Shown: piece after piece, positions 1 to 17,907 of the stretch | How the letters are laid out: each line of letters opens with the position of its first letter | Position numbering within the stretch: position 1 is the first letter of the stretch | Virus record (IMG/VR): IMGVR_UViG_2703718854_000004 | DNA from: a virus | Taxonomy: Duplodnaviria; Heunggongvirae; Uroviricota; Caudoviricetes | DNA: 19,005 bases | Strand: one strand, 5' to 3' | Position numbers and translations under genes: made by a program | Notes under the pieces: model-generated | Database searches by the model: none | What the model was told of the DNA's origin: nothing | What the model saw: the letters and a program-made list of their open reading frames with translations, nothing else

Positions 1-1074
1 TCATTTGTCGATTTCAATTTTGTCCCATTCCCGTCCACGGCTGTCCCTATACCGCGCCGCCATTGAATCTGATTTATGCCCGAGAAGACGTTGAGCAAAC
101 TTATCGCCAATCTGGTTCCGGTATAGCCTCGCTGACAGGCTACGCAGTTCATGGAATGTTGGCGGGTTTCCATCAAATGAGAGTCCAGATGCATTTCTCG
201 CCTTTGTAAAATACTTTGATACTGTTTTCGGGGAAAGCTGATCGTGATGCTTTGATGCGATTATAGTTTCACTGCTGCTGGCCTCCCTGCATTTCTGTAG
301 TGTATCAGCCAATGAGATATTGAGCGCGTCAATCGTTAGCGTTAGTGGAATGGCGAGTTTAGCCCCTGTTTTACTCTGTTCAATGTGAAGATGGTTGTCG
401 TTTATGTCTGACCATTTCATTCTGCACAAATCGCCGACTCTCTGCCCTGTAACGACGGCCAAATCCATCGCCAGCCTTAGCCAGATAGGGAGAGGTTCGG
501 CTGCATGGTAAATCTCGACATACTCATTAGCTGTCAGCCTTGAGCGCCTTACTTCTGACTTTGCTGTACGGGTTGCTGTTACCGGATTCGTTGCCACATG
601 CCCCTCGGCTATTGCTTCACGAAAAACGTCAACAAGGGTTGACCTGATTAATTTTGCGGAAGCTGCTTTACCTTCTGCTACGTAGGTGTTTAGCATTGCT
701 GCCACTTCTTTCGTTGATATGTCAGTGAGCGGTTTGTCCGGCAATTTTCTTCGGATTGCCCTGATTTTGCTGGCGTAGTCGAGTAGAGTTTTCGGCCTGA
801 TCCCCCTTTCGGTGAGGATTCTTTCATATCGGTCAAGCCACACATGAAGAGTGATTGCGTCACCGCCTTTAATTCTGTCTATCAGTGATTTGCGTCCGCT
901 GTCTGAGAGTAACTCAATATTGGCCTGTATTGCTTCAGTGATTGCTATCCTCCTGTCTCGGCCTAATCCAAACTCTTTACCCGTCCTTGGGTCCCTGTAG
1001 CAGTAATATCCATTGTTTCTTATATAAAGGTTAGGGGGTAAATCCCGGCGCTCATGACTTCGCCTTCTTCCCAT
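1..1074 (-). CDS. int: Tyrosine site-specific integrase, lambda Int type (357 aa); window begins at its stop codon
   Basis: ORF translation (MGRRRSHERRDLPPNLYIRNNGYYCYRDPRTGKEFGLG...) matches remembered lambda Int along its length; C-terminal catalytic region with HELRSL and RY motifs; start overlaps xis 3' end as in lambda. Confidence 0.95.
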   Translation of the reverse strand: MGRRRSHERRDLPPNLYIRNNGYYCYRDPRTGKEFGLGRDRRIAITEAIQANIELLSDSGRKSLIDRIKGGDAITLHVWLDRYERILTERGIRPKTLLDYASKIRAIRRKLPDKPLTDISTKEVAAMLNTYVAEGKAASAKLIRSTLVDVFREAIAEGHVATNPVTATRTAKSEVRRSRLTANEYVEIYHAAEPLPIWLRLAMDLAVVTGQRVGDLCRMKWSDINDNHLHIEQSKTGAKLAIPLTLTIDALNISLADTLQKCREASSSETIIASKHHDQLSPKTVSKYFTKARNASGLSFDGNPPTFHELRSLSARLYRNQIGDKFAQRLLGHKSDSMAARYRDSRGREWDKIEIDK

Positions 1075-1270
1075 TTCTGATCCTCTTCAAAAGGCTACCT
1101 GTTACTGGTCGATTTAAGTCAACCTTTACCGCTGATTCGTGGAACAGATACTCTCTTCCATCCTTAACCGGAGGAGGGAATATCCTGCACTCGCGTACCC
1201 ATCGACGAACTGTTTCAAGGCTTCTTGGGCGTCGCTGGCGTGCGTTCCACTCCTGAAGTGTCAAGTACAT
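1052..1270 (-). CDS. xis: Excisionase Xis (72 aa)
   Basis: Translation MYLTLQEWNARQRRPRSLETVRRWVRECRIFPPPVKDGREYLF... matches remembered lambda Xis; 23-nt overlap with int start. Confidence 0.93.
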   Translation of the reverse strand: MYLTLQEWNARQRRPRSLETVRRWVRECRIFPPPVKDGREYLFHESAVKVDLNRPVTGSLLKRIRNGKKAKS

Positions 1271-1565
1271 CGCAAAGTCTCCGCAATTACACGCAAGAAA
1301 AAACCGCCATCAGGCGGCTTGGTGTTCTTTCAGTTCTTCAATTCGAATATTGGTTACGTCTGCATGTGCTATCTGCGCCCACAGCATCCAGTGGTCATAG
1401 CAGTCGCTGATGTTCTCGGCTTCGATAACTCTGTTGAATGGTTCTCCATTCCATTCACCTGTAACTCGGAAGTGCATTTATCATCTCCATAAAACAAAAC
1501 TCGCCGTAGCGAGTTCAGATAAAAGAAATCCCCGCGAGTGCGAGGATAGTTACTTGTTCATATTA

Positions 1566-1847
1566 TTAATCGTCAATGTATTTTGAGCATTGTGGGCAAT
1601 CATCGATCCCACAATACGATTCATATGCATCCTTTATTGCGTCGCGGGCTTCAGTAAGAGTATTGAATAAGTTGCAGCTATTATCTTTTTGATATAGGTA
1701 AGTTCCTAATTTATAAGCAGAAGAAGCATCATTTCCGCTGTCTAAAATTACATCGTTATGGATTCTGCACCTTGCAAGAACTCCTGATCCCATAAGGGTC
1801 TGCATAGCCCATTGCTCTTGATCTTCACACAAATCATGAATGCTCAT
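1566..1847 (-). CDS. ea8.5: Ea8.5-like small Cys-rich protein (93 aa from internal ATG; six-frame ORF extends to 1865)
   Basis: Same position (about 295 bp beyond xis) and same length (282 bp) as lambda ea8.5; several Cys pairs; start choice MSIHDL is by size analogy, not verified. Confidence 0.55.
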   Translation of the reverse strand: MSIHDLCEDQEQWAMQTLMGSGVLARCRIHNDVILDSGNDASSAYKLGTYLYQKDNSCNLFNTLTEARDAIKDAYESYCGIDDCPQCSKYIDD

Positions 1848-1961
1848 TTCAACACCTCTCTTCACGTTTCACACACGTTAAGATTAACAGTGTTTTTACA
1901 TGCTTTGGAAGATTTATTTTATAAAAACTCTTTTAATACAAATAGATATAATAGTTCACTA

Positions 1962-2630
1962 TTATAGCTCCTTTAATCGAGGCGGTTCTGGTAGAGGCAT
2001 CCAGTGGGTTACCTCTTTGAGATACAGGTCTTCGCCATCACCGTCATCCCAAGTTGGATTGCCATCATTAAACCAGTCGCCATATACGCCGACCTGAGTG
2101 TTGGGGATGTTTGGTGGGTAGTTGTTTTTAAAGTCAGCTGCTAACACATAGCATTGTCGCTCTCCCATTTCTGGCATTCGCTCACTACAGCTTATCCAAC
2201 CATCCGGAGTTACCGGATAGTTGCCGGGTTCTTTAATGTGCAAGCGAGGCTCACCATCTTTTGGCTCAGGCCACTGGCGCTCCATGTTGATCTTCAATTT
2301 ATCTTCCATAGCAGCGGTAATTTCAGCATCGCTGATGCCAGCACGGCGCTGTGCATCCCACAACAGAAACTGCATATCAGCCCACTCGCTAAGATCGTCT
2401 GGTTCGGCTGCGGCTTCCAGTGCCTCTTTTGAGAGATGTTTCAGCGGACCAATGGGGCCAACGCAGCCAAATGTGGAGTCAGACCATTTGGCATGCTCGT
2501 GGCGAATCTGTTCGCGTTCCAGTGATGCCAGTGCAATTCGTGCCAGTTCCATTTGTTCGCCACGAGTAAGTCCGTTATCAAGCGGATTTTTAATGAATAA
2601 TTTGATACGTTCTTTGGTTATAGCGCTCAT
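1962..2630 (-). CDS. Two-domain protein: N-terminal MazG-like nucleotide pyrophosphohydrolase-like region (DUF550-like) plus C-terminal DUF551-like region (222 aa)
   Basis: Strong RBS AAGGAG 7 nt upstream of ATG at 2630 (ORF track start at 2663 is probably upstream of the real start); motif EWADMQFLLWDAQRRAGISDAEITAAMEDKLKINMERQW resembles MazG-type helices; C-terminus THWMPLPEPP resembles DUF551; occupies the variable ea22 region. Confidence 0.65.
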   Translation of the reverse strand: MSAITKERIKLFIKNPLDNGLTRGEQMELARIALASLEREQIRHEHAKWSDSTFGCVGPIGPLKHLSKEALEAAAEPDDLSEWADMQFLLWDAQRRAGISDAEITAAMEDKLKINMERQWPEPKDGEPRLHIKEPGNYPVTPDGWISCSERMPEMGERQCYVLAADFKNNYPPNIPNTQVGVYGDWFNDGNPTWDDGDGEDLYLKEVTHWMPLPEPPRLKEL

Positions 2631-2631
2631 A

Positions 2632-3048
2632 TCACTCTCCTTTGATGCGAATGCCTGTTGCAATGCTGTTTATGATGCTGTCAGTGCATGGGGTAGAAAG
2701 CTGGGCATCTCCAGCAATTCTCATGACCTCAACATCTGCATATCGAATACCGAGGTGTATCAGACCGGCTATACCTGACTTAAGCCGAGCATTTTCCATA
2801 AACAGATCCTTTGCCCGCTGTTTTTCTGCCTCAAGCTCAACGCGCAACTTCCCTACCGTTAACGCAATATCCTCGTTCTCTTGGTCGCGGCGTTTGATGT
2901 ATTGCTGGTTTCTTTCCCGTTCATCCAGCAGTGCCAGCACAACCTGAGGTGTGACTTTCATACGAAATGCCAGCAATTTTTGAGGCGTTGCTACTGTTTC
3001 AATTGCTACTGCCGCCTCACGCAGTGCCTGAGAGTTAATTTCGCTCAC
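2632..3048 (-). CDS. Ea22-like coiled-coil protein (138 aa), apparent GTG start overlapping upstream stop (GTGA)
   Basis: N-terminus MSEINSQALREAA and the segment LLDERERNQQYIKRRDQENEDIALTVGKLRVELE resemble remembered lambda Ea22; stop abuts next gene start. Confidence 0.55.
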   Translation of the reverse strand: MSEINSQALREAAVAIETVATPQKLLAFRMKVTPQVVLALLDERERNQQYIKRRDQENEDIALTVGKLRVELEAEKQRAKDLFMENARLKSGIAGLIHLGIRYADVEVMRIAGDAQLSTPCTDSIINSIATGIRIKGE

Positions 3049-3266
3049 TTCGAACCTCTCTGTTTACTGATAAGCTCCAGATCCTCCTGGCAACTTGCAC
3101 AAGTCCGACAACCCTGAACGACCAGGCGTCTTCGTTCATCTATGGGATCGCCACACTCACAACAATGAGTGGCAGATATAGCCTGGTGGTTCAGGCGGCG
3201 CATTTTTATTGCTGTGTTGCGCTGTAATTCTTCAATTTCTGATGCTGAATCAATGATGTCTGCCAT
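3045..3266 (-). CDS. orf73: TraR/DksA-family C4 zinc-finger protein (73 aa), lambda Orf73-like
   Basis: Four-Cys motif CCECGDPIDERRRLVVQGCRTCASC typical of the TraR/DksA zinc finger; size and position as in lambda. Confidence 0.7.
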   Translation of the reverse strand: MADIIDSASEIEELQRNTAIKMRRLNHQAISATHCCECGDPIDERRRLVVQGCRTCASCQEDLELISKQRGSK

Positions 3267-3364
3267 CTTCCATTAATCCCTGAATTATTGGTTAATACGC
3301 TTGAGGGTGAATGCGAACAATAAAAAAGGAGCCTGTAGCTCCCTGATGATTTTGCTTTTCATGT

Positions 3365-3676
3365 TCATCGCTCCTTAAAGACGCCGTTTAACATGCCGAT
3401 CGCCAGACTTAAATGAGTCGGTGTGAATCCCATCAGCGTTACCGTTTCGCGGTGCTTCTTCAGTACGCTACGGCAAATGTCATCGACGTTTTTATCCGGA
3501 AACTGCTGTCTGGCTTTTTTGATTTCAGAGTTAGCCAGACGGGCAATGCTGCGAAGGGCGTTTTCTTGCTGAGGTGTCATTGAACAAGTCCCATGTCGGC
3601 AAGCATAAGCACACAAAATATGAAGCCCGCTGCCAGAAAAATGCATTCCGTGGTTGTCATACCTGGTCTCTCTCAT
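3365..3676 (-). CDS. Hypothetical protein at the lambda orf61 position (103 aa as drawn; alternative start at 3580 gives 71 aa)
   Basis: ORF overlaps the next gene start by 20 nt as lambda orf61 does with orf63; no recognisable domain; start uncertain. Confidence 0.45.
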   Translation of the reverse strand: MRETRYDNHGMHFSGSGLHILCAYACRHGTCSMTPQQENALRSIARLANSEIKKARQQFPDKNVDDICRSVLKKHRETVTLMGFTPTHLSLAIGMLNGVFKER

Positions 3677-3848
3677 CTGCTTCTGCTTTCGCCACCATCA
3701 TTTCCAGCTTTTGTGAAAGGGATGCGGCTAACGTATGAAATTCTTCGTCTGTTTCTACTGGTATTGGCACAAACCTGACTCCAATTTGAGCGAGGCTATG
3801 TGCCATCTCGATACTCGTTCTTAACTCAACAGGAGATGCTTTGTGCAT
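3657..3848 (-). CDS. orf63: Lambda orf63-like small protein (63 aa)
   Basis: Exact length and 28-nt overlap with the next gene as in lambda orf63/orf60a. Confidence 0.6.
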   Translation of the reverse strand: MHKASPVELRTSIEMAHSLAQIGVRFVPIPVETDEEFHTLAASLSQKLEMMVAKAEADERDQV

Positions 3849-4009
3849 ACAGCCCCTCGTTTATTATTTATCTCCTCAGCCAGCCGCTGTGCTTTCAGTG
3901 GATTTCGGATAACAGAAAGGCCGGGAAATACCCAGCCTCGCTTTGTAACGGAGTAGACGAAAGTAATCGCGCCTACCCGGATATTATCGTGAGGATGCGT
4001 CATCGCCAT
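3821..4009 (-). CDS. orf60a: Lambda orf60a-like small protein (62 aa), translationally coupled to exo (ATGGCGATGA overlap)
   Basis: Start ATG lies inside the last codons of exo; position identical to lambda orf60a. Confidence 0.6.
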
Positions 4010-4680
4010 TGCTCCCCAAATACAAAACCAATTTCAGCCAGTGCCTCGTCCATTTTTTCGATGAACTCCGGCACCATCTCGTCAAAACTCGCTATGTACT
4101 TTTCATCCCGCTCAACCACGACATAATGCAGGCCTTCACGCTTCATACGCGGGTCATAGTTGGCAAAGTACCAGGCATCTTTTCGCGTCACCCACATGCT
4201 GTACTGCACCTGGGCCATGTAAGCCGACTTTATGGCCTCGAAACCACCGAGCCGGAACTTCATGAAATCCCGGGAGGTAAACGGGCATTTCAGTTCAAGG
4301 CCGTTGCCATCACTGCATAAACCATCGGGAGAGCAGGCGGTGCGCATACTTTCGTCGCGATAGATGATCGGGGATTCAGTAACATTCACGCCGGAAGTGA
4401 ATTCAAACAGGGTTCTGGCGTCGTTCTCGTACTGTTTTCCCCAGGCCAGCGCCTTAGCATTAACTTCCGGAGCCACACCGGTGCAAACCTCAGCCAGCAG
4501 GGTGTGGAAGTAGGACATTTTCATGTCAGGCCACTTCTTTCCTGAGCGGGGCTTTGCTATCACGTTGTGAACTTCTGAAGCGGTGATGACGCCGAGCCGT
4601 AATTTGTGCCATGCATCATCCCCCTGTTCGACAGCTCTCACGTCGATCCCGGTACGCTGCAGGATAATGTCCGGTGTCAT
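4000..4680 (-). CDS. exo: Lambda exonuclease (Red alpha, 226 aa)
   Basis: Translation [44 protein letters not shown]... matches remembered lambda Exo; ATGA overlap with bet stop. Confidence 0.97.
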
Positions 4681-5462
4681 GCAGCCACCTTCTGTTCAGA
4701 GGCTTTCTGTTTCAGGAATCCAAGAGCTTTCACTGCTTCGGCCTGTGTCAGTTCTGACGATGCGCGAATGTCGCGGCGAAATATCTGGGAACAGAGCGGC
4801 AATAAGTCGTCATCCCATGTTTTATCCAGGGCGATCAGCAGAGTGTTAATCTCCTGCATGGTTTCATCGTTAACCGGAGTGATGTCGCGTTCTGGCTGAC
4901 GTTCTGCAGTGTATGCAGTATTTTCGACAATGCGCTCGGCTTCATCCTTGTCATAGATACCAGCAAATCCGAAGGCCAGACGGGCACACTGAATCATGGC
5001 TTTATGCCGTAACATCCGTTTGGGATGCGACTGCCACGGCCCCGTGATTTCTCTGCCTTCGCGGGTTTTGAATGGTTCGCGGCGGCATTCATCCATCCAC
5101 TCGGTAACGCAGATCGGATGATTACGGTCCTTGCGGTAAATCCGGCATGTGCAGGATTCATTGTCCTGCTCAAAGTCCATGCCATCAAACTGCTGGTTTT
5201 CATTGATGATGCGGGACCAGCCATCAACGCCCACCACCGGAACGATGCCGTTCTGCTTATCAGGGAAGGCGTAAATTTCTTTCGTCCACGGATTAAGGCC
5301 GTACTGGTTGGCGACGATCAACAATGCGATGAACTGCGCATCGCTGGCATCACCTTTAAATGCCGTCTGGCGAAGAGTGGTGATCAGTTCCTGTGGGTCG
5401 ACAGAATCCATGCCGACACGTTCAGCCAGCTTCCCAGCCAGCGTTGCGAGTGCTGTACTCAT
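4677..5462 (-). CDS. bet: Single-strand annealing recombinase Bet (Red beta, 261 aa)
   Basis: Translation [59 protein letters not shown]... matches remembered lambda Bet. Confidence 0.97.
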
Positions 5463-5467
5463 CCGTT

Positions 5468-5764
5468 TTATACCTCTGAATCAATATCAACCTGGTGGTG
5501 AGCAATGGTTTCAACCATGTACCGGATGTGTTCTGCCATGCGCTCCTGAAACTCAACATCGTCATCGAACGCACGGGTAATGGCTTTTTTGCTGACCCCG
5601 TGGCGTTGCAAATGATCGATGCATAGCGATTCAAACAAATGCTGGGGCAGACCCTTTTCCAGGTCGTCTGCCAGTTCTGCCTCTTTCTCTTCACGGGCGA
5701 TCTGCTGGTAGTGACGCGCCCAGCTCTGAGCCTCAAGACGATCCTGAATGTAATAAGCGTTCAT
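5468..5764 (-). CDS. gam: Gam, RecBCD inhibitor, short form (98 aa)
   Basis: Translation [34 protein letters not shown]... matches remembered lambda Gam; the long-form upstream ATG at 5885 is out of frame (see findings). Confidence 0.92.
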
Positions 5765-5839
5765 GGCTGAACTCCTGAAAATGGCTGTGAAAATATCGCC
5801 CGCGAAATGCCAGGCTGATTAGGAAAACAGGAAAGGGGA

Positions 5840-5983
5840 TTAGTGAATGCTTTTGCTTGATCTCAGTTTCAGTATTAATATCCATTTTTTATAAGCGTCG
5901 ACGGCCTCACGAAACATCTTTTCATCGCCAATAAAAGTGGCGATAGTGAATTTAGTCTGGATAGCCATAAGTGTTTGATCCAT
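5840..5983 (-). CDS. kil: Kil host-killing protein (47 aa)
   Basis: Internal ATG of the 89-aa six-frame ORF gives [47 protein letters not shown], matching remembered lambda Kil; overlaps both the long gam start and cIII as in lambda. Confidence 0.8.
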
Positions 5984-6116
5984 TTTTTGGGACTCCTGGC
6001 TGATTAAGTATGTCGATAAGGCGTTTCCATCCGTCACGTAATTTACGGGTGATTCGTTCAAGTAAAGATTCGGAAGGGCAGCCAGCAACAGGCCACCCTG
6101 CAATGGCATATTGCAT
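5952..6116 (-). CDS. cIII: cIII, FtsH (HflB) protease inhibitor (54 aa)
   Basis: Hand translation of the minus strand gives [54 protein letters not shown], matching remembered lambda cIII; below the 60-aa cutoff of the ORF track. Confidence 0.85.
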   Translation of the reverse strand: MQYAIAGWPVAGCPSESLLERITRKLRDGWKRLIDILNQPGVPKNGSNTYGYPD

Positions 6117-6188
6117 GGTGTGCTCCTTATTTATACATAACGAAAAACGCCTCGAGTGAAGCGTTATTGGTATGCGGTAACGCTGCGC

Positions 6189-6557
6189 TCAGGCGGCTTT
6201 GATAGTCATATCATCTGAATCAAATATTCCTGATGTATCGATATCGGTAATTCTTATTCCTTCGCTACCATCCATTGGAGGCCATCCTTCCTGACCATTT
6301 CCATCATTCCAGTCGAACTCACACACAACACTATATGCATTTAAGTCGCTTGAAATTGCTATAAGCAGAGCATGTTGCGCCAGCATGATTAATACAGCAT
6401 TTAATACAGAGCCGTGTTTATTGAGTCGGTATTCAGAGTCTGACCAGAAATTATTAATCTGGTGAAGTTTTTCCTCTGTCATTACGTCATGGTCGATTTC
6501 AATTTCTATTGATGCTTTCCAGTCGTAATCAATGATGTATTTTTTGATGTTTGACAT
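6189..6557 (-). CDS. ea10: Ea10 protein (122 aa)
   Basis: Size (369 bp) and position between cIII and ral identical to lambda ea10. Confidence 0.75.
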   Translation of the reverse strand: MSNIKKYIIDYDWKASIEIEIDHDVMTEEKLHQINNFWSDSEYRLNKHGSVLNAVLIMLAQHALLIAISSDLNAYSVVCEFDWNDGNGQEGWPPMDGSEGIRITDIDTSGIFDSDDMTIKAA

Positions 6558-6574
6558 CTATTCATATCCTCATA

Positions 6575-6604
6575 GATAAAAAATCGCCCTCACACTGGAG
6601 GGCA
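6575..6604 (-). terminator. Intrinsic terminator-like hairpin for leftward transcripts (tL2-like)
   Basis: Stem CGCCCTC / GAGGGC with 6-nt loop, followed on the minus strand by AUUUUUUAUC; lies between ral and ea10. Confidence 0.45.
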
Positions 6605-6760
6605 AAGAAGATTTCCAATAATCAGAACAAGTCGGCTCCTGTTTAGTTACGAGCGACATTGCTCCGTGTATTCACTCGTTGGAATGAATACACAGTGCAG
6701 TGTTTATTCTGTTATTTATGCCAAAAATAAAGGCCACTATCAGGCAGCTTTGTTGTTCTG

Positions 6761-6940
6761 TTAACCAAGTTCTCTGGCAATCATTGCCGTCGTTCGTATT
6801 GCCCATTTATCGACATATTTCCCATCTTCCATTACAGGAAACATTTCTTCAGGCTTAACCATACATTCCGATTGCAGCTTGCATCCATTGCATCGCTTGA
6901 ATTGTCCACACCATTGATTTTTATCAATAGTCGTAGTCAT
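6761..6940 (-). CDS. ral: Ral restriction-alleviation protein, 59 aa as read (apparently 7 codons shorter than lambda Ral)
   Basis: Hand translation MTTTIDKNQWCGQFKRCNGCKLQSECMVKPEEMFPVMEDGKYVDKWAIRTTAMIARELG then TAA; frame continues QNNKAA to a TGA. Confidence 0.75.
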   Translation of the reverse strand: MTTTIDKNQWCGQFKRCNGCKLQSECMVKPEEMFPVMEDGKYVDKWAIRTTAMIARELG

Positions 6941-7010
6941 ACGGATAGTCCTGGTATTGTTCCATCACATCCTGAGGATGCTCTTCGAACTCTTCAAATT
7001 CTTCTTCCAT
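6924..7010 (-). CDS. orf28: Lambda orf28-like acidic micro-ORF (28 aa)
   Basis: Hand translation MEEEFEEFEEHPQDVMEQYQDYPYDYDY; overlaps ral start as in lambda. Confidence 0.55.
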   Translation of the reverse strand: MEEEFEEFEEHPQDVMEQYQDYPYDYDY

Positions 7011-7137
7011 ATATCACCTTAAATAGTGGATTGCGGTAGTAAAGATTGTGCCTGTCTTTTAACCACATCAGGCTCGGTGGTTCTCGTGTACCCCTACAGC
7101 GAGAAATCGGATAAACTATTACAACCCCTACAGTTTG

Positions 7138-7689
7138 ATGAGTATAGAAATGGATCTACTCGTTATTCTCGGACGAGTGTTCAGTAATGAACCTTTGGAG
7201 AGAACCATGTATATGATCGTTATCTGGGTTGGACTTCTGCTTTTAAGCCCAGATAACTGGCCTGAATATGTTAATGAGAGAATCGGTATTCCTCATGTGT
7301 GGCATGTTTTCGTCTTTGCTCTTGCATTTTCGCTAGCAATTAATGTGCATCGATTATCAGCTATTGCCAGCGCCAGATATAAGCGATTTAAGCTAAGAAA
7401 ACGCATGAAGATGCAAAACGATAAAGTGCGATCAGTAATTCAAAACCTTACAGAAGAGCAATCTATGGTTTTGTGCGCAGCCCTTAATGAAGGCAGGAAG
7501 TATGTGGTTACATCAAAACAATTCCCATACATTAGTGAGTTGATTGAGCTTGGTGTGTTGAACAAAACTTTTTCCCGATGGAACGGGAAGCATATATTAT
7601 TCCCTATTGAGGATATTTACTGGACTGAATTAGTTGCCAGCTATGATCCATATAATATTGAGATAAAGCCAAGGCCAATATCTAAGTAA
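7138..7689 (+). CDS. sieB: Superinfection exclusion protein SieB (about 183 aa), membrane protein
   Basis: Position between ral and N, opposite strand; hydrophobic N-terminal segments (IVIWVGLLLLSP, VFVFALAFSLAINV); first ATG at 7138. Confidence 0.8.
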   Translation: MSIEMDLLVILGRVFSNEPLERTMYMIVIWVGLLLLSPDNWPEYVNERIGIPHVWHVFVFALAFSLAINVHRLSAIASARYKRFKLRKRMKMQNDKVRSVIQNLTEEQSMVLCAALNEGRKYVVTSKQFPYISELIELGVLNKTFSRWNGKHILFPIEDIYWTELVASYDPYNIEIKPRPISK

Positions 7690-7932
7690 CTAGGTAAGAG
7701 GAATCGATTTTCCCTTAATTTTCTGGCGTCCACTGCATGTTATGCCGCGTTCGCCAGGCTTGCTGTACCATGTGCGCTGATTCTTGCGCTCAATACGTTG
7801 CAGGTTGCTTTCAATCTGTTTGTGGTATTCAGCCAGCACTGTAAGGTCTATCGGATTTAGTGCGCTTTCTACTCGTGATTTCGGTTTGCGATTCAGCGAG
7901 AGAATAGGGCGGTTAACTGGTTTTGCGCTTAC
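7690..7932 (-). pseudogene. N: N antiterminator remnant: C-terminal ~80 codons only, no start codon, arginine-rich RNA-binding N-terminus missing
   Basis: Minus-strand translation VSAKPVNRPILSLNRKPKSRVESALNPIDLTVLAEYHKQIESNLQRIERKNQRTWYSKPGERGITCSGRQKIKGKSIPL matches lambda N residues ~28-106; in-frame TAG four codons upstream of the homology boundary. Confidence 0.8.
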
Positions 7933-7972
7933 AGTACGGAACTAAACGCGGTAAAGCCGCTTAAGACATTCC

Positions 7973-8004
7973 CGCTCTTACACATCCCCGCCCTGAAAAA
8001 GGGC
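7973..8004 (+). promoter_or_regulatory. nutR site: boxA (CGCTCTTA) and boxB hairpin (GCCCTGAAAAAGGGC)
   Basis: Exact boxA and boxB consensus visible in sequence, followed by the lambda tR1/cII leader. Confidence 0.8.
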
Positions 8005-8083
8005 ATCCAATTAAACCACACCTATGGTGTATGCATTTATTTGCATACATTCAATCAATTGTTATCTAAGGAAATACTTACAT

Positions 8084-8377
8084 ATGGTTCGTGCAAACAA
8101 ACGCAACGAGGCTCTACGAATCGAGAGTGCGTTGCTTAACAAAATCGCAATGCTTGGAACTGAGAAGACAGCGGAAGCTGTGGGAGTTGATAAGTCGCAG
8201 ATCAGCAGGTGGAAGAGGGACTGGATTCCAAAGTTCTCAATGCTGCTTGCTGTTCTTGAATGGGGTGTCGTTGACGACGACATGGCTCGATTGGCACGAC
8301 AAGTTGCTGCGATTCTCACCAATAAAAAACGCCCGGCGGCAACCGAGCGTTCTGAACAAATCCAGATGGAGTTCTGA
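8084..8377 (+). CDS. cII: Transcriptional activator cII (97 aa)
   Basis: Translation from ATG 8084 MVRANKRNEALRIESALLNKIAMLGTEKTAEAVGVDKSQISRWKRDW... matches remembered lambda cII; the ORF-track start at 8024 is an upstream non-ATG extension. Confidence 0.95.
   Translation: MVRANKRNEALRIESALLNKIAMLGTEKTAEAVGVDKSQISRWKRDWIPKFSMLLAVLEWGVVDDDMARLARQVAAILTNKKRPAATERSEQIQMEF
8092..8105 (-). promoter_or_regulatory. cII binding repeats TTGC-N6-TTGC of pRE (-35 region), inside the cII 5' coding sequence
   Basis: Minus strand reads TTGCGTTTGTTTGC; known pRE architecture in lambda. Its targets (cro antisense, cI) are absent here. Confidence 0.5.
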
Positions 8378-8409
8378 GGTCATTACTGGATCAATCTACA
8401 GGAGTCATT

Positions 8410-9309
8410 ATGACAAATACAGCAAAAATACTCAACTTCTGCAGAGGTAACTTTGCCAAACAGGAGCGTAATGTGGCAGATCTCGATGATGGTTACGCCA
8501 GACTATCAAATATGCTGCTTGAGGCTTATTCAGGCGCAGATCTGACCAAGCGACAGTTTAAAGTGCTGCTTGCCATTCTGCGTAAAACCTATGGGTGGAA
8601 TAAACCAATGGACAGAATCACCGATTCTCAACTTAGCGAGATTACAAAGTTACCCGTCAAACGGTGCAATGAAGCCAAGTTAGAACTCGTCAGAATGAAT
8701 ATTATCAAGCAGCAATGCGGCATGTTTGGACCAAATAAAAACATCTCAGAATGGTGCATCCCTCAAAACGAGGGAAAATCCCTTAAAACGAGGGATAAAA
8801 CATCCCTCAAATTGGGGGATTGCTATCCCTCAAAACAGGGGGACACAAAAGACACTATTACAAAAGAAAAAAGAAAAGATTATTCGTCAGAGAATTCTGG
8901 CGAATCCTCTGACCAGCCAGAAAACGACCTTTCTGTGGTGAAACCGGATGCTGCAATTCAGAGCGGCAGCAAGTGGGGGACAGCAGAAGACCTGACCGCC
9001 GCAGAGTGGATGTTTGACATGGTGAAGACTATCGCACCATCAGCCAGAAAACCGAATTTTGCTGGGTGGGCTAACGATATCCGCCTGATGCGTGAACGTG
9101 ACGGACGTAACCACCGCGACATGTGCGTGCTGTTCCGCTGGGCATGTCAGGACAACTTCTGGTCCGGTAACGTGCTGAGCCCGGCCAAACTCCGCGATAA
9201 GTGGACCCAACTCGAAATCAACCGTAACAAGCAACAGGCAGGCGTGATAGCCAGCAAACCAAAACTCGACCTGACAAACACAGACTGGATTTACGGGGTG
9301 GATCTATGA
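8410..9309 (+). CDS. O: Replication initiator O (299 aa)
   Basis: Translation matches remembered lambda O; contains the ori iterons. Confidence 0.95.
   Translation: MTNTAKILNFCRGNFAKQERNVADLDDGYARLSNMLLEAYSGADLTKRQFKVLLAILRKTYGWNKPMDRITDSQLSEITKLPVKRCNEAKLELVRMNIIKQQCGMFGPNKNISEWCIPQNEGKSLKTRDKTSLKLGDCYPSKQGDTKDTITKEKRKDYSSENSGESSDQPENDLSVVKPDAAIQSGSKWGTAEDLTAAEWMFDMVKTIAPSARKPNFAGWANDIRLMRERDGRNHRDMCVLFRWACQDNFWSGNVLSPAKLRDKWTQLEINRNKQQAGVIASKPKLDLTNTDWIYGVDL
8757..8890 (+). repeat. ori-lambda: four ~19-bp iterons (ATCCCTCAAAACGAGGGA-type) plus adjacent AT-rich unwinding region
   Basis: Four tandem inverted-symmetry repeats visible at about 8757-8843, followed by A-rich tract AAAAGAAAAAAGAAAAGATTATT. 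Confidence 0.85.
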
Positions 9310-10007
9310 AAAACATCGCCGCACAGATGGTTAACTTTGACCGTGAGCAGATGCGTCGGATCGCCAACAACATGCCGGAACAGTACGACGAAAAGCCGCA
9401 GGTACAACAGGTAGCGCAGATCATCAATGGTGTGTTCAGCCAGTTACTGGCAACTTTCCCGGCGAGCCTGGCTAACCGGGACCAGAACGAACTGAACGAA
9501 ATCCGCCGCCAGTGGGTGCTGGCTTTCCGGGAAAACGGGATCACCACAATGGAACAGGTTAACGCAGGAATGCGCGTAGCCCGTCGGCAGAATCGACCAT
9601 TTCTGCCATCACCCGGGCAGTTTGTTGCATGGTGCCGGGAAGAAGCATCCGTTATCGCCGGACTGCCAAACGTCAGCGAGCTGGTTGATATGGTTTACGA
9701 GTATTGCCGGAAGCGAGGCCTGTATCCGGATGCGGAGTCTTATCCGTGGAAATCAAACGCGCACTACTGGCTGGTTACCAACCTGTATCAGAACATGCGG
9801 GCCAATGCGCTTACTGATGCGGAATTACGCCGTAAGGCCGCAGATGAGCTTGTCCATATGACTGCGAGAATTAACCGTGGTGAGGCGATCCCTGAACCAG
9901 TAAAACAACTTCCTGTCATGGGCGGTAGACCTCTAAATCGTGCACAGGCTCTGGCGAAGATCGCAGAAATCAAAGCTAAGTTCGGACTGAAAGGAGCAAG
10001 TGTATGA
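9306..10007 (+). CDS. P: Replication protein P, DnaB helicase loader (233 aa)
   Basis: Translation matches remembered lambda P; ATGA overlap with O stop. Confidence 0.95.
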   Translation: MKNIAAQMVNFDREQMRRIANNMPEQYDEKPQVQQVAQIINGVFSQLLATFPASLANRDQNELNEIRRQWVLAFRENGITTMEQVNAGMRVARRQNRPFLPSPGQFVAWCREEASVIAGLPNVSELVDMVYEYCRKRGLYPDAESYPWKSNAHYWLVTNLYQNMRANALTDAELRRKAADELVHMTARINRGEAIPEPVKQLPVMGGRPLNRAQALAKIAEIKAKFGLKGASV

Positions 10008-10294
10008 CGGGCAAAGAGGCAATTATTCATTACCTGGGGACGCATAATAGCTTCTGTGCGCCGGACGTTGCCGCGCTAACAGGCGCAACAGTAACCAGCA
10101 TAAATCAGGCCGCGGCTAAAATGGCACGGGCAGGTCTTCTGGTTATCGAAGGTAAGGTCTGGCGAACGGTGTATTACCGGTTTGCTACCAGGGAAGAACG
10201 GGAAGGAAAGATGAGCACGAACCTGATTTTTAAGGAGTGTCGCCAGAGTGCCGCGATGAAACGGGTATTGGCGGTATATGGAGTTAAAAGATGA
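10004..10294 (+). CDS. ren: Ren protein (96 aa)
   Basis: Position and size as lambda ren; ATGA overlap with P stop. Confidence 0.8.
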   Translation: MTGKEAIIHYLGTHNSFCAPDVAALTGATVTSINQAAAKMARAGLLVIEGKVWRTVYYRFATREEREGKMSTNLIFKECRQSAAMKRVLAVYGVKR

Positions 10295-10318
10295 CCATCT
10301 ACATTACTGAGCTAATAA

Positions 10319-10351
10319 CAGGCCTGCTGGTAATCGCAGGCCTTTTTATTT
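10319..10351 (+). terminator. Intrinsic terminator tR2 between ren and ninB
   Basis: Hairpin CAGGCCTGC...GCAGGCC followed by TTTTTATTT. Confidence 0.7.
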
Positions 10352-10367
10352 GGGGGAGAGGGAAGTC

Positions 10368-10808
10368 ATGAAAAAACTAACCTTTGAAATTCGATCTCCA
10401 GCACATCAGCAAAACGCTATTCACGCAGTACAGCAAATCCTTCCAGACCCAACCAAACCAATCGTAGTAACCATTCAGGAACGCAACCGCAGCTTAGACC
10501 AAAACAGGAAGCTATGGGCCTGCTTAGGTGACGTCTCTCGTCAGGTTGAATGGCATGGTCGCTGGCTGGATGCAGAAAGCTGGAAGTGTGTGTTTACCGC
10601 AGCATTAAAGCAGCAGGATGTTGTTCCTAACCTTGCCGGGAATGGCTTTGTGGTAATAGGCCAGTCAACCAGCAGGATGCGTGTAAGCGAATTTGCGGAG
10701 CTATTAGAGCTTATACAGGCATTCGGTACAGAGCGTGGCGTTAAGTGGTCAGACGAAGCGCGACTGGCTCTGGAGTGGAAAGCGAGATGGGGAGATCGGG
10801 CTGCATGA
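10368..10808 (+). CDS. ninB: NinB recombination protein (146 aa)
   Basis: ATG at 10368 with RBS GGGAGAGGGAAG; translation MKKLTFEIRSPAHQQNAIHAVQQILPDPTKP... matches remembered lambda NinB. Confidence 0.9.
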   Translation: MKKLTFEIRSPAHQQNAIHAVQQILPDPTKPIVVTIQERNRSLDQNRKLWACLGDVSRQVEWHGRWLDAESWKCVFTAALKQQDVVPNLAGNGFVVIGQSTSRMRVSEFAELLELIQAFGTERGVKWSDEARLALEWKARWGDRAA

Positions 10809-11332
10809 CTATCAAATCAAATACGCCAGCACACGACAAGGACTGCTGGCAAACGCCGCTTTGGCTTTTTGATGCACTGGATATTGAGTTTGGATTCTGG
10901 CTGGATTCGGCAGCGAGCGACAAAAATGCTCTGTGTGCTCACTGGCTAACTGAGGCCGACGACGCGCTCAATTCTGAGCGGGTAAGCCACGGTGCAATCT
11001 GGAATAACCCACCGTACAGCAATATCAGGCCGTGGGTGGAAAAAGCCGCTGAGCAGTGCATACAACAGCGACAGACGGTAGTTATGCTTGTGCCAGAGGA
11101 TATGTCAGTCGGATGGTTCAGCAAGGCTCTGGAGAGTGTCGACGAAGTTCGCATTATCACTGATGGACGGATTAATTTTATCGAACCATCGACAGGGCTG
11201 GAGAAGAAGGGAAACAGCAAAGGCTCCATGCTGCTGATTTGGCGACCGTTCATCAGTCCTCGACGGATGTTTACTACCGTATCCAAAGCGGCATTGATGG
11301 CGATCGGGCAGGGCGTCAGGAGGGCGGCATGA
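10805..11332 (+). CDS. Phage-type DNA N6-adenine methyltransferase, Dam family (175 aa), orphan (no cognate nuclease seen)
   Basis: ATGA overlap with ninB stop; conserved CWQTP N-terminal motif and NPPY catalytic motif (WNNPPYS). Confidence 0.8.
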
Positions 11333-11505
11333 GGCGACAGCGACGAAGTTTCACCGACATCATCTGCGAAAACTGCAAATACCTTCCAACGAAACGCTCC
11401 AGAAATAAACGCAAGCCAATCCCAAAAGAATCTGACGTAAAAACCTTCAATTACACAGCTCACCTGTGGGATATCCGGTGGCTAAGATATCGTGCGAGGA
11501 AATGA
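11329..11505 (+). CDS. ninE: NinE family protein (58 aa)
   Basis: ATGA overlap with methyltransferase stop; translation [58 protein letters not shown] resembles remembered NinE. Confidence 0.75.
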
Positions 11506-11507
11506 CA

Positions 11508-11849
11508 ATGGATTATTCACAGTTAAGTGATTTTGAAATTAACAGAATGGTAGGAGACATAATTTTTAAAGGCCTTTGGGCAAGTAAACCGGAAACATCA
11601 GGGAATAACACCAACAAATGGTATTACGGAAATGCTGATACAACTTTTGAGCCATTAAATCATTTGCCTGACTACTGCAATGATCCGAGCGCTTCATGGC
11701 CGATTATTGAGAAATACAGGATTTCTATCTTAGACCAGTTAACTGAATGGTGTGTGGATGCAAAAGGCGTAAGCCCAATATTTGATGCCAGACCTCTCCG
11801 CGCCGCCATGATTGTCTTTCTCCTGATGCAGGAGGCCAATAATGCTTAG
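11508..11849 (+). CDS. Hypothetical nin-region protein (113 aa)
   Basis: RBS GAGGAA 8 nt upstream of ATG 11508; no domain recognised. Confidence 0.6.
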
Positions 11850-12059
11850 CCCATCTCAATCCCTTCAATACCTGAAAGGAAGCATAGAGCGGGCTTCAAT
11901 GTGCACAGAGTGGATTCTATCTAGGTTTAGCGCATACAGAAGATTGCCGGTAAAGGGCATGCCAAGCAAGTCGATGCTGCATATGCAAAAGAATGCGCGC
12001 TGGAAGGTATGGCGAGAACACAGGTTATGTGGCTGAAAGAGGGGGGTATTAAGGCGTGA
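11842..12059 (+). pseudogene. Frame-broken small gene upstream of rusA; C-terminal frame resembles YbcO/DUF1364 C-terminus
   Basis: Start at 11842 is coupled to the upstream stop but that frame ends at 12036; a different frame (open from 11931) ends in a GTGA overlap with the rusA start and reads ...[25 protein letters not shown]. Confidence 0.45.
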
Positions 12060-12418
12060 ATACCTACAGCATCACATTACCCTGGCCTCCGAGCAATAAT
12101 CGCTATTACCGCCATAATCGCGGGCGCACGCACGTTAGCGCAGAGGGGCAGGCATACCGCGATAACGTCGCCCGAATCATTAAAAACGCAATGCTGGATA
12201 TCGGCCTGGCTATGCCTGTGAAAATCCGTATTGAGTGCCACATGCCGGATCGCCGTCGCCGTGACCTGGATAATCTACAAAAAGCCTCTTTTGACGCACT
12301 CACCAAAGCAGGTTTCTGGCTGGATGATGCTCAGGTCGTTGATTACCGCGTTGTGAAGATGCCGGTTGTCAAAGGTGGAAAGCTGGAACTGACCATCACT
12401 GAACTGGGAGATGAATGA
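12056..12418 (+). CDS. rusA: RusA Holliday-junction resolvase (120 aa), GTG start
   Basis: Translation [48 protein letters not shown]... matches remembered E. coli DLP12 RusA. Confidence 0.93.
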
Positions 12419-12556
12419 TGTTTGAGTTTTATATGGCAGAACTTCTTCGCCACCGCTGGATGCGCCTGCGCTTATATCGTTTCCCCAGTTCTGTTTTGAC
12501 CGATTACCGAATACTGAGGAATTACGCCAAAACCCTGACAGGAGCAGGAGTATGAA
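12419..12556 (+). CDS. ylcG: YlcG-like small protein (45 aa)
   Basis: Hand translation [45 protein letters not shown]; starts immediately after rusA stop; resembles DLP12 YlcG. Confidence 0.65.
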
Positions 12557-12640
12557 GTCAGAGATAACAATCAACTAATACTGTTTTGTTGATTTTTGCT
12601 TGTAATTGGCGTTCTGGTCTGATTTTTGTGGAGTAAGTTG

Positions 12641-13024
12641 ATGCGTGATATTCAGATGGTTCTTGAGCGTTGGGGAGCGTGGGCGGCTAATAATCATGAA
12701 GATGTGACCTGGTCGTCCATTGCCGCCGGTTTTAAGGGATTAATTCCTTCAAAAGTAAAATCTCGCCCGCAATGTTGTGACGATGACGCTATGATCATTT
12801 GCGGGTGCATGGCCCGTCTGAAAAAGAACAACAGCGATTTGCACGATTTATTAGTAGATTATTATGTAGTCGGTATGACATTCATGTCACTGGCAGGTAA
12901 GCATTGCTGCTCTGATGGTTATATCGGGAAAAGGTTACAAAAGGCTGAGGGCATAATTGAAGGGATGTTAATGGCATTAGATATCCGGTTAGAGATGGAT
13001 ATCGTTGTTAATAACTCTAATTAA
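12641..13024 (+). CDS. Q: Late-gene antiterminator Q, phage 21/DLP12 QuuD type (127 aa)
   Basis: ATG 12641 with RBS GGAGTAAG; translation [36 protein letters not shown]... resembles remembered QuuD; Cys-rich zinc-binding region. Confidence 0.85.
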
Positions 13025-13040
13025 TACGCCAATTATTTAC

Positions 13041-13075
13041 TAAAAGTTATTAAAAATGGGGCGTTGAAACGCCCC
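13041..13075 (-). terminator. Intrinsic terminator for the leftward porin transcript
   Basis: GC hairpin GGGGCG-loop-CGCCCC followed on the minus strand by AUUUUUAAUAACUUUU. Confidence 0.5.
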
Positions 13076-13165
13076 CAAAAATAAAGGGTAATATATAACA
13101 GAAGGTTTATATAGTTAGAAGCAAGGTTGTGCTTCTAAAGGAAGTGGCTTGAGGGAGCCACTTAT

Positions 13166-13203
13166 ATGTTGGGGAGGCAAAGCCTCCCACAACATATCTT
13201 TTA
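13166..13203 (+). terminator. Candidate tR' (end of the short pR' transcript downstream of Q)
   Basis: Hairpin TGTTGGGGAGGC-AAA-GCCTCCCACAACA followed by TATCTTTT; pR' and qut not pinpointed. Confidence 0.45.
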
Positions 13204-13212
13204 GTAATCAAA

Positions 13213-14295
13213 TTAGAACTGGTAAACCATACCTACAGCAACGATATCATCGGTAGCAACGCCAGATGCTTTCGTGAAATCGCTCTTATCAATCAGGTTG
13301 ATTTTGTAGTCAACAAAAGTGGACATATTTTTGTTGAAGTAATAGGTTGCACCTACATCAACATATTCAACCAGGTCCTGATCACCCCAAACACCCAAGT
13401 CTTTTCCTTTAGAATGCAGGTAAGCAACGGATGGACGCAGGCCGAAGTCGAACTGATATTGTGCAACAGCTTCGAAGTTTTGTGCTTTGTTGGCAATATG
13501 GTTATTACCAAAAACAGTCATGTTCTGGGTTTCAGAATAGGTGGTGGCCAGATAGATGTTGTTCGCATCATATTTCAGACCAGCTGCCCATACTTCAGCA
13601 TTTTGACCAGAAGCATTCAGACCGTTGTTACCGTAGATAACCTGATTATTAGTGCGATCAGATTTAGCATAGGTTGCACCCACGCCGAATCCTTCATACT
13701 CATAAGTAGTTGAGAAACCGAAACCATCGCCATTAGCTTCAGTTACTTCATTTCGGTCATTTTTGCCCTGATACTGAGCTGCAAAGTTCAGGCCATCAAC
13801 CAGACCAAAGAAGTCGTTGTTACGATAAGTTGCAACACCTGTGGTGCGACCAGTCATGAATACATCTGTTTGGGTCCAGGTATCGCCACCGAATTCTGGC
13901 AGAACGTCGGTCCATGCACCGATGTCGTATGCTACACCGTAGTTACGGCCGTAATCGATGGAGCCGTAGTCACCGAATTTCAGGCCAGCGAAGGCAAGAC
14001 GGGTTTTATCTTTGGAGGAACCTTGAGATTCAGCGCGGTTGCCTTTGAATTCATATTCCCACTGACCGAAACCAGTCAGTTGATCGTTGATTTGGGTTTC
14101 ACCTTTGAAGCCAAGACGGGCATAAGTAGTATCACCATCATCTGCATCATTAGAGGAGAAGTAGTGCTTAGCATTAACTTTCCCGTACAGATCCAGCTTG
14201 TTACTGTCTTTATTATAAATTTCAGCTGCCTGAGCAGACATCGCCATCAGTACTGATGCAGCTACAGCAGAAATTGCCACTGTTAATTTTTTCAT
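13213..14295 (-). CDS. nmpC: Outer-membrane general porin, OmpC/OmpF superfamily, phage-borne NmpC/Lc type (360 aa precursor)
   Basis: Start MKKLTV... with signal peptide ending AQA; C-terminal VGMVYQF beta-barrel signature; ORF-track start at 14355 is an upstream extension; sits antisense between Q and holin as in DLP12/PA-2. Confidence 0.85.
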
Positions 14296-14723
14296 CGTGA
14301 GCCCTTTTTTTGAACTATTATTAAAAAATGATGTCACTGCGCGATAAATATTCATCTAATCAATGTGATTATTTCAAGATGTAAGTTTTGGTTTCTCGTT
14401 TGATTTGTGAAGTAGATCTCTATTTTTATCTGAACTTTTTTCTATCGAATCCTATTCATGGCTCTTGGCTGAATAAAAATAAATCTATTAGCCAATTTAT
14501 ATTAACGGCTGTTATTTATAAGTGCTCTATAATTTGAAGGTTCAATTTAAACCGGCTAAAAATAACACTGGAAATTATTTGTTGGTTATTTGTTGAGATT
14601 TGCTTATGTATTTGTAGTGGTGTTTTCAATACTCGGTAGCATTCTCGCAAATATCATTTAGTGGTTTACGTACGTAAAAAATTGGTTATGCTGTTAAGAG
14701 TGGTTACTTCGTCACACAGCTTA

Positions 14724-14757
14724 AACCCGCCGTCGAGCGGGTTTTTCCATTTTTTGA
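14724..14757 (+). terminator. Terminator-like hairpin upstream of the lysis cassette
   Basis: AAACCCGC-CGTCGA-GCGGGTTT followed by TTCCATTTTTT. Confidence 0.4.
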
Positions 14758-14867
14758 GTCTCGATATTAGCTGATAACCCAATACCTGAGTTATTCACTG
14801 ACTCCGAGTCTGTTACGTTTCGTAGTATTCCCTCAATTTACACCCGCTTTGTCTGCGAGGTGGGGTT

Positions 14868-15083
14868 ATGAAATCCATGGATAAGTTAACAACGGGTGTC
14901 GCCTATGGCACCTCAGCAGGTAGTGCCGGGTACTGGTTTTTACAGCTGCTAGATAAAGTCACGCCCTCACAGTGGGCGGCAATTGGAGTGCTGGGTAGCC
15001 TGGTATTTGGCCTGCTGACGTACCTGACAAACCTTTATTTCAAGATTAAAGAAGATAAGCGCAAGGCTGCGAGAGGTGGATAA
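14868..15083 (+). CDS. S: Class II holin, phage-21 S21 pinholin type (71 aa), dual-start motif MKSM
   Basis: RBS GAGGTGGGG; two TM segments; Met1 and Met4 starts; resembles remembered S21/EssD. Confidence 0.88.
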
Positions 15084-15580
15084 TGCCTCCATCATTACGA
15101 AAAGCTGTTGCTGCTGCTATTGGTGGCGGGGCTATTGCTATAGCATCTGTGTTAATCACTGGCCCAAGTGGTAACGATGGTCTGGAAGGTGTGAGACATA
15201 ATCCTTACAAAGACATAGTTGGTGTATGGACTGTATGTTACGGGCATACAGGAAAAGACATCATTCCCGGTAAAACGTATACCGAAGCAGAGTGCAAAGC
15301 CCTCCTGAATAAAGACCTTGCCACTGTCGCCAGACAAATTAACCCGTACATCAAAGTCGATATACCGGAAACAACGCGCGGCGCTCTTTACTCGTTCGTC
15401 TACAACGTGGGTGCTGGAAATTTCAGAACATCGACGCTTCTTCGCAAAATAAACCAGGGCGATATCAAAGGCGCATGTGATCAGCTACGTCGCTGGACAT
15501 ACGCTGGCGGTAAGCAATGGAAAGGCCTGATGACTCGCCGTGAGATTGAGCTTGAAATCTGTTTGTGGGGGCAGAAATGA
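15083..15580 (+). CDS. R: SAR endolysin, phage-21 R21-type lysozyme (165 aa)
   Basis: N-terminal Gly/Ala-rich signal-anchor-release segment [20 protein letters not shown]; catalytic triad context GLEGV...D...T; start overlaps holin stop. Confidence 0.9.
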
Positions 15581-16044: not shown

Positions 16045-16386
16045 TAGCGATAATTTTACTCATCATCCTTCACATCTGGCTCTGTAGACAGGGTGGTGAT
16101 CACTTCTGGAGTAAATCCAGATTAAACATCTCATTGCTGATGCTTGATATTGAGCATCTGGCGCGCAGTAAGGGGCGGCGTTGAGATAAGAGCCAGTTCA
16201 TTACAAATACCAGGATTTAGCCTCGCATTCGCGGGGCTTTTTATATCTGAATTTCACAGCGCATCTCACGCGCATATTAACGAGAGCCTTTCAGTAAGCG
16301 AGCCTGAGAAATGCCGTTATAGGTGGCGACCTCTCTCGGGCGGCTTTTCTGTGAGACAGGCTCACTTTCTAAAAGGTAAAGACGCT

Positions 16387-17745: not shown

Positions 17746-17907
17746 TTAATAGTATTGGTTGCGTAACAAAGTGCGGTCCTGCTGGCATTCTGGAGGGAAA
17801 TACAACCGACAGATGTATGTAAGGCCAACGTGCTCAAATCTTCATACAGAAAGATTTGAAGTAATATTTTAACCGCTAGATGAAGAGCAAGCGCATGGAG
17901 CGACAAA

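Follow-up and report, generated by a model that had tools for sequence, protein, structure and literature searches.

A torS lambdoid prophage of Escherichia coli without the immunity region that its near-identical relatives retain

RESULTS AND DISCUSSION

A lambdoid prophage that belongs beside torS in a natural lineage of Escherichia coli has very probably lost the regulatory switch of its 434-type ancestor through a single spontaneous deletion of 1,753 bp, as a stage of prophage decay. The prophage is represented by IMG/VR record IMGVR_UViG_2703718854_000004, a stretch of 19,005 nucleotides that was analysed whole and is referred to here as the window. The immunity module, made up of the repressor gene, cro, and the oL-pL and oR-pR regions, was present in the ancestor and is absent from the window, where there is no 434 cI (210 amino acids [aa]), no 434 cro (71 aa), and none of the 14-bp 434 operators.

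The window and its intact relatives

A search of complete E. coli genomes identified two, AL.H8 from pond water in Hong Kong and strain 100181 from human stool in The Gambia, which cover 100% of the window at 100.0% identity and contain extra DNA. Both sister prophages are integrated beside torS, and between sieB and cII both encode N (107 aa), a hex-like open reading frame (ORF), a 210-aa repressor of the LexA family, and a 71-aa Cro. When compared base by base, the window differs from AL.H8 by four single nucleotide polymorphisms (SNPs) in 19 kb, one (position 6332) within 1 to 7932 and three within 7929 to 19005. No difference from strain 100181 occurs between 7929 and the end of the window, and the left arm of the window differs from that strain by the same SNP at 6332 and by an insertion sequence in strain 100181. 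The latter element, the IS3-family ISEc52 with a frameshifted transposase, separates the ea10-like gene from ral, and its insertion site is unoccupied in the window (6683 to 6685). Since the intact sisters are only one to four SNPs away, the exact endpoints of the deletion, its microhomology, and the genes that it removed can be read directly, which makes the window a very clean and very young example of its kind.

As judged from its ORFs and the sister annotation, the window covers the half of a lambdoid prophage that contains the early genes and the lysis genes. The left arm carries, in order, the integrase gene (1 to 1074, minus strand), xis, ea genes, exo, bet, gam, kil, cIII, an ea10-like gene, ral, and sieB, and the right arm carries cII, O, P, ren, nin genes, a gene for a Q-type antiterminator, a porin gene, a lysis cassette, and the start of the gene for the small terminase subunit. 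This is the lambda order (int-xis, Red, kil, cIII, ral, sieB, and N, followed by cII, O, P, ren, nin, Q, and lysis), and the assignment to the lambdoid phages draws on the ORFs, the sister annotation, Pfam matches in identical contigs, and 94 to 99.6% DNA identity to lambda and 434-type phages. The early genes of the two arms include the following:

4000 to 4680, minus strand: exo, intact (ORF list and sister annotation)
4677 to 5462, minus strand: bet, intact (ORF list and sister annotation)
5468 to 5764, minus strand: gam, intact (ORF list and sister annotation)
5840 to 5983, minus strand: kil, intact (ORF list and sister annotation)
5952 to 6116, minus strand: cIII, intact (ORF list and sister annotation)
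8410 to 9309 and 9306 to 10007, plus strand: O and P, intact, with the upstream pR gone (PF04492 and PF06992 in an identical contig)

The genes of the pL operon span 4000 to 6116 on the minus strand, and the upstream pL and nutL are gone. The lambda cIII thermoregulator of Rfam (RF01804) is intact at 6071 to 6129 (minus strand, 88.5 bits) even though the operon is without pL; it was the only match in the Rfam scan, which found no structured RNA at the junction. A gene for an OmpC/NmpC-like porin (13213 to 14295, minus strand) sits between the Q-type antiterminator gene and the holin gene and is encoded on the other strand, as in DLP12. Partial genes are also recorded in the sister annotation, namely a hypothetical gene and an ead/Ea22-like fragment at 2505 to 3003 and a DUF1364 fragment at 11970 to 12059. 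All are shared with the prophages that have intact immunity, which indicates that some decay or mosaicism is older than the immunity deletion.

The sieB-cII interval and the missing segment

The sieB stop at 7689 and the cII start at 8084, read from the window sequence, leave 394 bp between the two genes (7690 to 8083), exactly the interval that had been described in a sequence-only reading of this DNA. The interval and its surroundings contain the following features:

7150 to 7689, plus strand: sieB (superinfection exclusion B), intact, converging on and abutting the N remnant
7690 to 7932, minus strand: N remnant, codons 28 to 107 and the stop; the start codon and the N-terminal 27 codons are gone
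7929 to 7932: deletion junction, with the microhomology TTAC found at both ends of the lost segment
7929 to 7964, plus strand: cro remnant of 434 type, codons 61 to 71 (LQYGTKRGKAA) and the stop
7973 to 8004, plus strand: nutR, intact, with boxA CGCTCTTA at 7973 to 7980 and boxB GCCCTGAAAAAGGGC at 7990 to 8004
8084 to 8377, plus strand: cII, intact, 97 aa (PF05269 Phage_CII in an identical contig)
8093 to 8106, minus strand: CII-binding TTGC-N6-TTGC and pRE -35 region, positions transferred from the 434 annotation
8326 to 8435, minus strand: oop RNA unit, with a pO promoter-like site at 8435 to 8407 and a terminator hairpin at 8353 to 8326

The sieB product is a 179-aa protein that matches PF14163 (SieB) in an identical public contig, and the gene is also annotated in the sister prophages. 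The N remnant is a 100% match to residues 28 to 107 of the AL.H8 N protein by tblastn, and its translation agrees, so that the start-less remnant reported earlier at 7690 to 7932 stands. The missing codons 1 to 27 include the arginine-rich RNA-binding motif MDAQTRRRERRAEKQAQWKAAN, and the sole start codon remaining in this frame in the ORF list is a GTG at 7839. The next stretch, which had been left as about 40 bp of unassigned sequence (7933 to 7972), is in fact the 3' end of a 434-type cro gene (from 7929) and a short spacer after the cro stop, as seen from alignment to phage 434 and to MLI104K2 (a second deleted prophage, discussed below), from the 434 annotation, and from the translation. 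The nutR positions were transferred from the annotated phage 434 record, and the sequence there is identical to that of the intact sister prophages; with boxA and boxB legible and cII complete, the earlier description of both nutR and cII as intact is supported. The phage 434 annotation has an oop RNA at the corresponding position, and the pO site and terminator of this unit in the window come from promoter and terminator scans.

When the alignment is walked from the left, the window matches AL.H8 through position 7932, and when it is walked from the right, the match continues down to 7929. The flanks are offset by 1,753 bp in AL.H8 with the 4-bp TTAC overlap at 7929 to 7932, and strain 100181 gives the same result. 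The sequence-only reading had proposed that the deletion endpoints be mapped and inspected for microhomology, and comparison with the intact 434-type sisters supplies both exactly. The missing 1,753 bp align from end to end with phage 434 at 97.2% identity and, according to the annotated 434 record, run from the 5' end of N through nutL, pL, oL1 to oL3, hex, cI, pRM, oR1 to oR3, and pR into cro. The coding sequence removed in this way consists of N codons 1 to 27, cro codons 1 to 60, and all of hex and cI. Because the sisters and the lost segment match phage 434, the proper reference is phage 434 and not lambda, and rexA and rexB were never present. The ancestral interval of roughly 3 kb with the lambda gene set, including rexB and rexA, that was assumed at first must therefore be replaced by the sister interval of 2,147 bp, which has 434 immunity and no rexAB.

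The 434 immunity type ascribed to the ancestral prophage is a sequence-based assignment and is made by descent only, from sisters that carry the module and from the match of the cro remnant and the flanks to phage 434. Like phage 434 and lambda imm434, the window combines a left arm (sieB and the 3' part of N) that is 99% identical to lambda with a right arm (the 3' end of cro, nutR, cII, and O) that is 98% identical to phage 434. Unlike them, it keeps only 11 codons of cro and 80 codons of N and is without the 434 switch. Searches by tblastn with 434-type and lambda-type cI and cro, hex, and full-length N found no other piece of cI, cro, hex, or N in the window, and blastn found no match in the window to the missing 1,753-bp segment. 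These searches agree with the earlier statement that no cI or cro ORF exists anywhere in the window, given that only cro codons 61 to 71 remain. An inversion, or a relocation of cI, cro, or pL, had been named in the sequence-only reading as something that could undo its claim of a deletion, and the same searches rule this out within the window.

How the deletion arose

The ends of the deletion were probably joined by illegitimate, microhomology-mediated recombination at TTAC. A microhomology of 4 bp is the usual signature of RecA-independent illegitimate recombination, which can come about through slippage or when a break is repaired by end joining. A longer imperfect match is found just upstream of both ends:

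7905 to 7919, plus strand: TAGGGCGGTTAACTG, the part on the N side of a near-matching patch whose counterpart in cro is TATGGCGCTTAACTG (identical at 13 of 15 positions)

On the N side the patch precedes TTAC by 13 nt, and on the cro side by about 13 to 17 nt. Within the 2-kb interval the N-side 44-mer finds its best local match here, at the cro breakpoint, with a score that is reached by only 3 of 1,000 shuffles. We suggest that this near match probably helped the recombination by stabilising the misalignment.

Deletions that cut N short and extend to the right across the immunity region are present in at least four other natural prophages. MLI104K2, PSJ-12, FG31-1, and Z1323HEC0399 each keep a 3' remnant of N of 228 to 261 nt and have lost the immunity region to its right, as the window has, but their right-hand endpoints, their backbones, and their integration sites are not those of the window. 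The N remnant of MLI104K2 is joined to cro at a point 63 bp further upstream than in the window, that of PSJ-12 (228 nt) is fused to ninF, that of FG31-1 is joined to a region next to a partial gene for a DNA-ejection protein, and that of Z1323HEC0399 (261 nt) is fused to a truncated O gene. Partial N records numbered 15/660 and 3/595 among complete E. coli genomes, in searches where full-length matches ranked first and few examples were retrieved. In many E. coli O157:H7 chromosomes, a mirror image is seen, with only the first ~80 nt of the N gene (the part deleted in the window) present under an annotated site-specific integrase.

Two of these prophages, MLI104K2 and FG31-1, break N at GCGCTTA, 1 to 4 nt from the window breakpoint, and have different right-hand partners. 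MLI104K2 is 1 to 1.5% different from the window on both sides of the junction. FG31-1 belongs to the P22-like erf prophages and has an N gene with a private SNP; the different backbones indicate that the deletion events were independent. A breakpoint in N shared by two unrelated prophages is not predicted by a simple random-slippage model. It is possible, although we consider it unlikely, that the left end is fixed by site-specific breakage or processing at GCGCTTA in N, in which case the deletions would be one-ended and the microhomology would be only a trace of repair. The three breakpoints within 1 to 4 nt, with their different flanking SNPs and right-hand partners, favor such an explanation, as does the MLI104K2 junction itself, which has an overlap of only 2 nt and no nearby near-match; a near-matching patch was sought as an explanation of that junction, and the best score equalled the shuffle mean. 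However, the searches for N endpoints were sensitive only to endpoints within a range of ~36 nt, and so the coincidence is suggestive at most, with a chance of roughly 0.02 by a rough estimate. Other events are offset by 13 nt in one direction and by 16 nt in the opposite one, no site of a known nuclease or recombinase could be recognised in the sequence, and the near-matching patch adequately explains the window's own junction. A DNA hairpin as the cause of the recurrent endpoint is also unsupported, since both strands at the site fold no better than shuffled sequence (z scores of +1.3 and +1.2). GCGCTTA/C at N codon 27/28, just past the RNA-binding motif, is a doubtful candidate for a true hot spot of one-ended deletions that strip immunity; were it one, this would point to a specific DNA break or processing event as a recurrent route to the disarming of prophages.

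The endpoint shared with MLI104K2 also allows a two-step history, in which the deletion was imported by homologous recombination from an MLI104K2-type deleted prophage and then extended by a 63-bp TTA-to-TTA deletion. Removal of the 63 bp between two TTA triplets of MLI104K2 would indeed give the window junction. However, the window is identical to the AL.H8/100181 type on both sides of the junction, whereas MLI104K2 differs by 1 to 1.5%; the differences closest to the junction are position 7473 in the left flank and positions 7989 and 8008 in the right flank, and the right-hand crossover would need to fall within ~57 bp. As it also requires two extra steps, we regard this history as very improbable compared with a direct microhomology-mediated deletion from an intact sister-type prophage.

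The junction as an inherited allele

The deletion is an inherited natural allele of an E. coli lineage. The identical junction, with zero mismatches over flanks of 6 to 9 kb, was found in GCA_054792755.1, in GCA_013060615.1, and in the Logan assembly of SRR6219405. In the first of these, located by an exact look-up of the O protein, a 4.84-Mb contig has sieB followed directly by cII and is identical to the window over 8.9 kb. In the other two, from each of which one contig was fetched (the Logan contig being 17 kb long), there is no mismatch over 6.4 kb. The allele can also be followed by way of the SNP at 6332, the sole base change in the left arm relative to both intact sisters, which changes residue 76 of Ea10 (a DUF2528 protein) from G to S and serves, in the data examined, as a marker of the lineage with the deletion. 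The G76S variant of Ea10 was found in 45 data blocks, and in about 20 of the 24 contigs that were read, sieB is followed directly by cII. Three fetched loci with the G76S variant do not have the junction and carry a P22-type cro and repressor and a different N. Searches for the junction or for any altered continuation of N in GTDB species representatives, JGI metagenomes, and IMG/VR returned chance 18-mer matches in unrelated taxa or nothing.

Because independent datasets share the identical junction, it is a real inherited allele and neither a misassembly nor a construct. An assembly error at this point had been raised by the sequence-only reading as a threat to its interpretation. It is extremely unlikely that the 1.75-kb segment is really present and was collapsed by the assembler, given that three datasets, each produced separately, share the 60-nt junction and have identical flanks (contigs of 4.84 Mb, 76 kb, and 17 kb, the last from short-read Logan data), that many more contigs have the same gene order, and that the deleted segment is unique, with no repeat in the window to cause a collapse. 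Recombineering prophages retain cI857, pL, and N. That the immunity region was deleted by engineering, as it might be in a strain built for recombineering or expression, can be dismissed with hardly any reservation: the combination of intact Red genes and an adjacent regulatory region that has been deleted bears a superficial likeness to the defective lambda prophages of recombineering, but those keep exactly what the window misses (cI, pL, and the N start), the junction is a bare 4-bp microhomology with no FRT or loxP scar, marker, or restriction site, the backbone is that of a wild torS prophage with 434 immunity whose intact sisters come from pond water and human stool, and the allele is present in many unrelated public assemblies and sequencing runs.

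Predicted consequences for expression and immunity

The control of an inducible prophage relies on a repressor-controlled pair of promoters and on antitermination by N at nutL and nutR; in the window, pL, pR, and nutL have been deleted and nutR alone is left. The earlier claim that the element lacks a repressor, pL, pR, and a functional N is borne out by the annotation of the lost 434 stretch and by the loss of the N start and codons 1 to 27. As the repressor is gone, there should be no 434 immunity and no target for RecA-stimulated cleavage, and the prophage is predicted to be incapable of SOS induction and of N antitermination. The loss of pL and nutL leaves exo, bet, gam, kil, and cIII without a programmed promoter, and the loss of pR does the same for cII, O, P, and Q. 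By analogy with lambda, we would therefore expect no programmed transcription of Red, kil, and cIII or of cII, O, P, nin, and Q. The CII-dependent pRE site is kept but would have no supply of CII.

A consensus scan of 6500 to 8600 gave two promoter-like sites, where 5.3 would be expected by chance, both on the minus strand: the pO site (8435 to 8407) and an unassigned 9-of-12 match at 6764 to 6736. Neither is at the junction, and the scan gave no indication that a new promoter was created there. The earlier view that Red and O/P have no known early promoter stands insofar as pL and pR are deleted and no promoter-like site occurs at the junction; that these genes are silent is something we infer from lambda biology.

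If only cI were lost, pL and pR would be de-repressed and the cell would die. The removal of the repressor gene and of both promoters that it controlled in one event would explain how the deletion could be survived, and the window illustrates how a repressor gene may be lost without cell death when pL and pR go with it. Its intact Red, sieB, O/P, Q, and lysis genes, which have no programmed promoter, offer a natural test case for the rate at which unexpressed phage genes decay, and the remnant is likewise a test case for recombination with incoming lambdoid phages.

The sieB gene presumably carries its own promoter, and both sieB and the porin gene can stay active from promoters of their own. 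No intrinsic terminator was found on the plus strand between 7690 and 8084 in a terminator scan. As sieB points at the junction and no plus-strand terminator precedes cII, weak read-through may occur, and from the sequence layout a low level of sieB transcription may enter nutR, the Rho-dependent tR1 region, and cII-O-P. That sieB transcription may in this way run into an orphaned nutR-cII-O-P-Q unit is more speculative than the hot spot considered above; if it does, N supplied by an infecting phage could activate the remnant.

Prophage decay and comparison with known remnants

The source strain carries a second, larger deletion just beyond window position 19005 (7426 to 8241 of locus L041, taken from GCA_054792755.1). 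In this assembly, Nu1 and ~245 nt of the gene for the large terminase subunit gpA are followed by a tail-fibre remnant and then by a host GGDEF gene and the tor genes. No head or tail gene is left, and the complete head, tail, and packaging set, which lies outside the window, is lacking in the source assembly, whereas the sister strains keep gpA through the tail genes. The presence of the immunity deletion and of the loss of all head and tail genes in the same lineage indicates that the window represents a stage of prophage decay. It is a defective ("cryptic" or "grounded") prophage that is inherited vertically and has lost the functions of induction and particle formation, and its phenotype is predicted to be non-inducible and non-immune. 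Of the two origins offered by the sequence-only reading, a decaying prophage is favored by the sisters and by this second deletion, and a deliberately deleted derivative is opposed by the lack of a scar and by the occurrence of the allele in unrelated datasets.

This is an ordinary event of the textbook kind, in which a temperate prophage becomes a harmless remnant, and the product belongs to a familiar class of objects. Cryptic lambda prophages from which the host gains no immunity have been known since the literature of the 1960s. The window resembles the cryptic prophages of K-12 (DLP12, Rac, and Qin) and other "grounded" prophages as a chromosomally fixed lambdoid remnant that gives no phage and has intact accessory and recombination genes. 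The likeness to DLP12 extends to gene content, as the sister annotation of the right part of the window lists quuD, the porin gene, essD, rrrD, ybcV, ybcW, and nohD. However, the window is far younger than the K-12 cryptic prophages, being one to four SNPs from intact relatives with every retained ORF intact. Grounded prophages have been reviewed as a general phenomenon with an emphasis on damage to the integrase or att sites (PMC6379469), whereas the window was inactivated through the loss of immunity and promoters and has int and xis intact.

A prophage that keeps kil, O/P/ori, and lysis genes and no longer produces particles would be a liability upon induction. In laboratory work with trapped defective lambda fragments, de-repression kills the host rapidly, and the rare survivors carry inactivating mutations or deletions (PMC3640518). 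These data make it plausible that there was selection for a deletion that disarmed a still-lethal, non-productive prophage; neutral loss is equally compatible with the data. The trapped cIII-ren cI857 fragments employed in Replicative Killing selection are, like the window, defective elements that retain O, P, and ori (PMC3640518). They differ in keeping cI857 and pR, both of which the window allele has lost, so that it can no longer be de-repressed.

Other states of the same torS prophage, recognised by an identical integrase protein, occur elsewhere. One strain has only int-xis and a tail-fibre assembly gene, another has an IS1 in sieB and nothing beyond it, and in a further one the immunity and replication module is of another kind and includes HipA-like and YdaS/YdaT genes.
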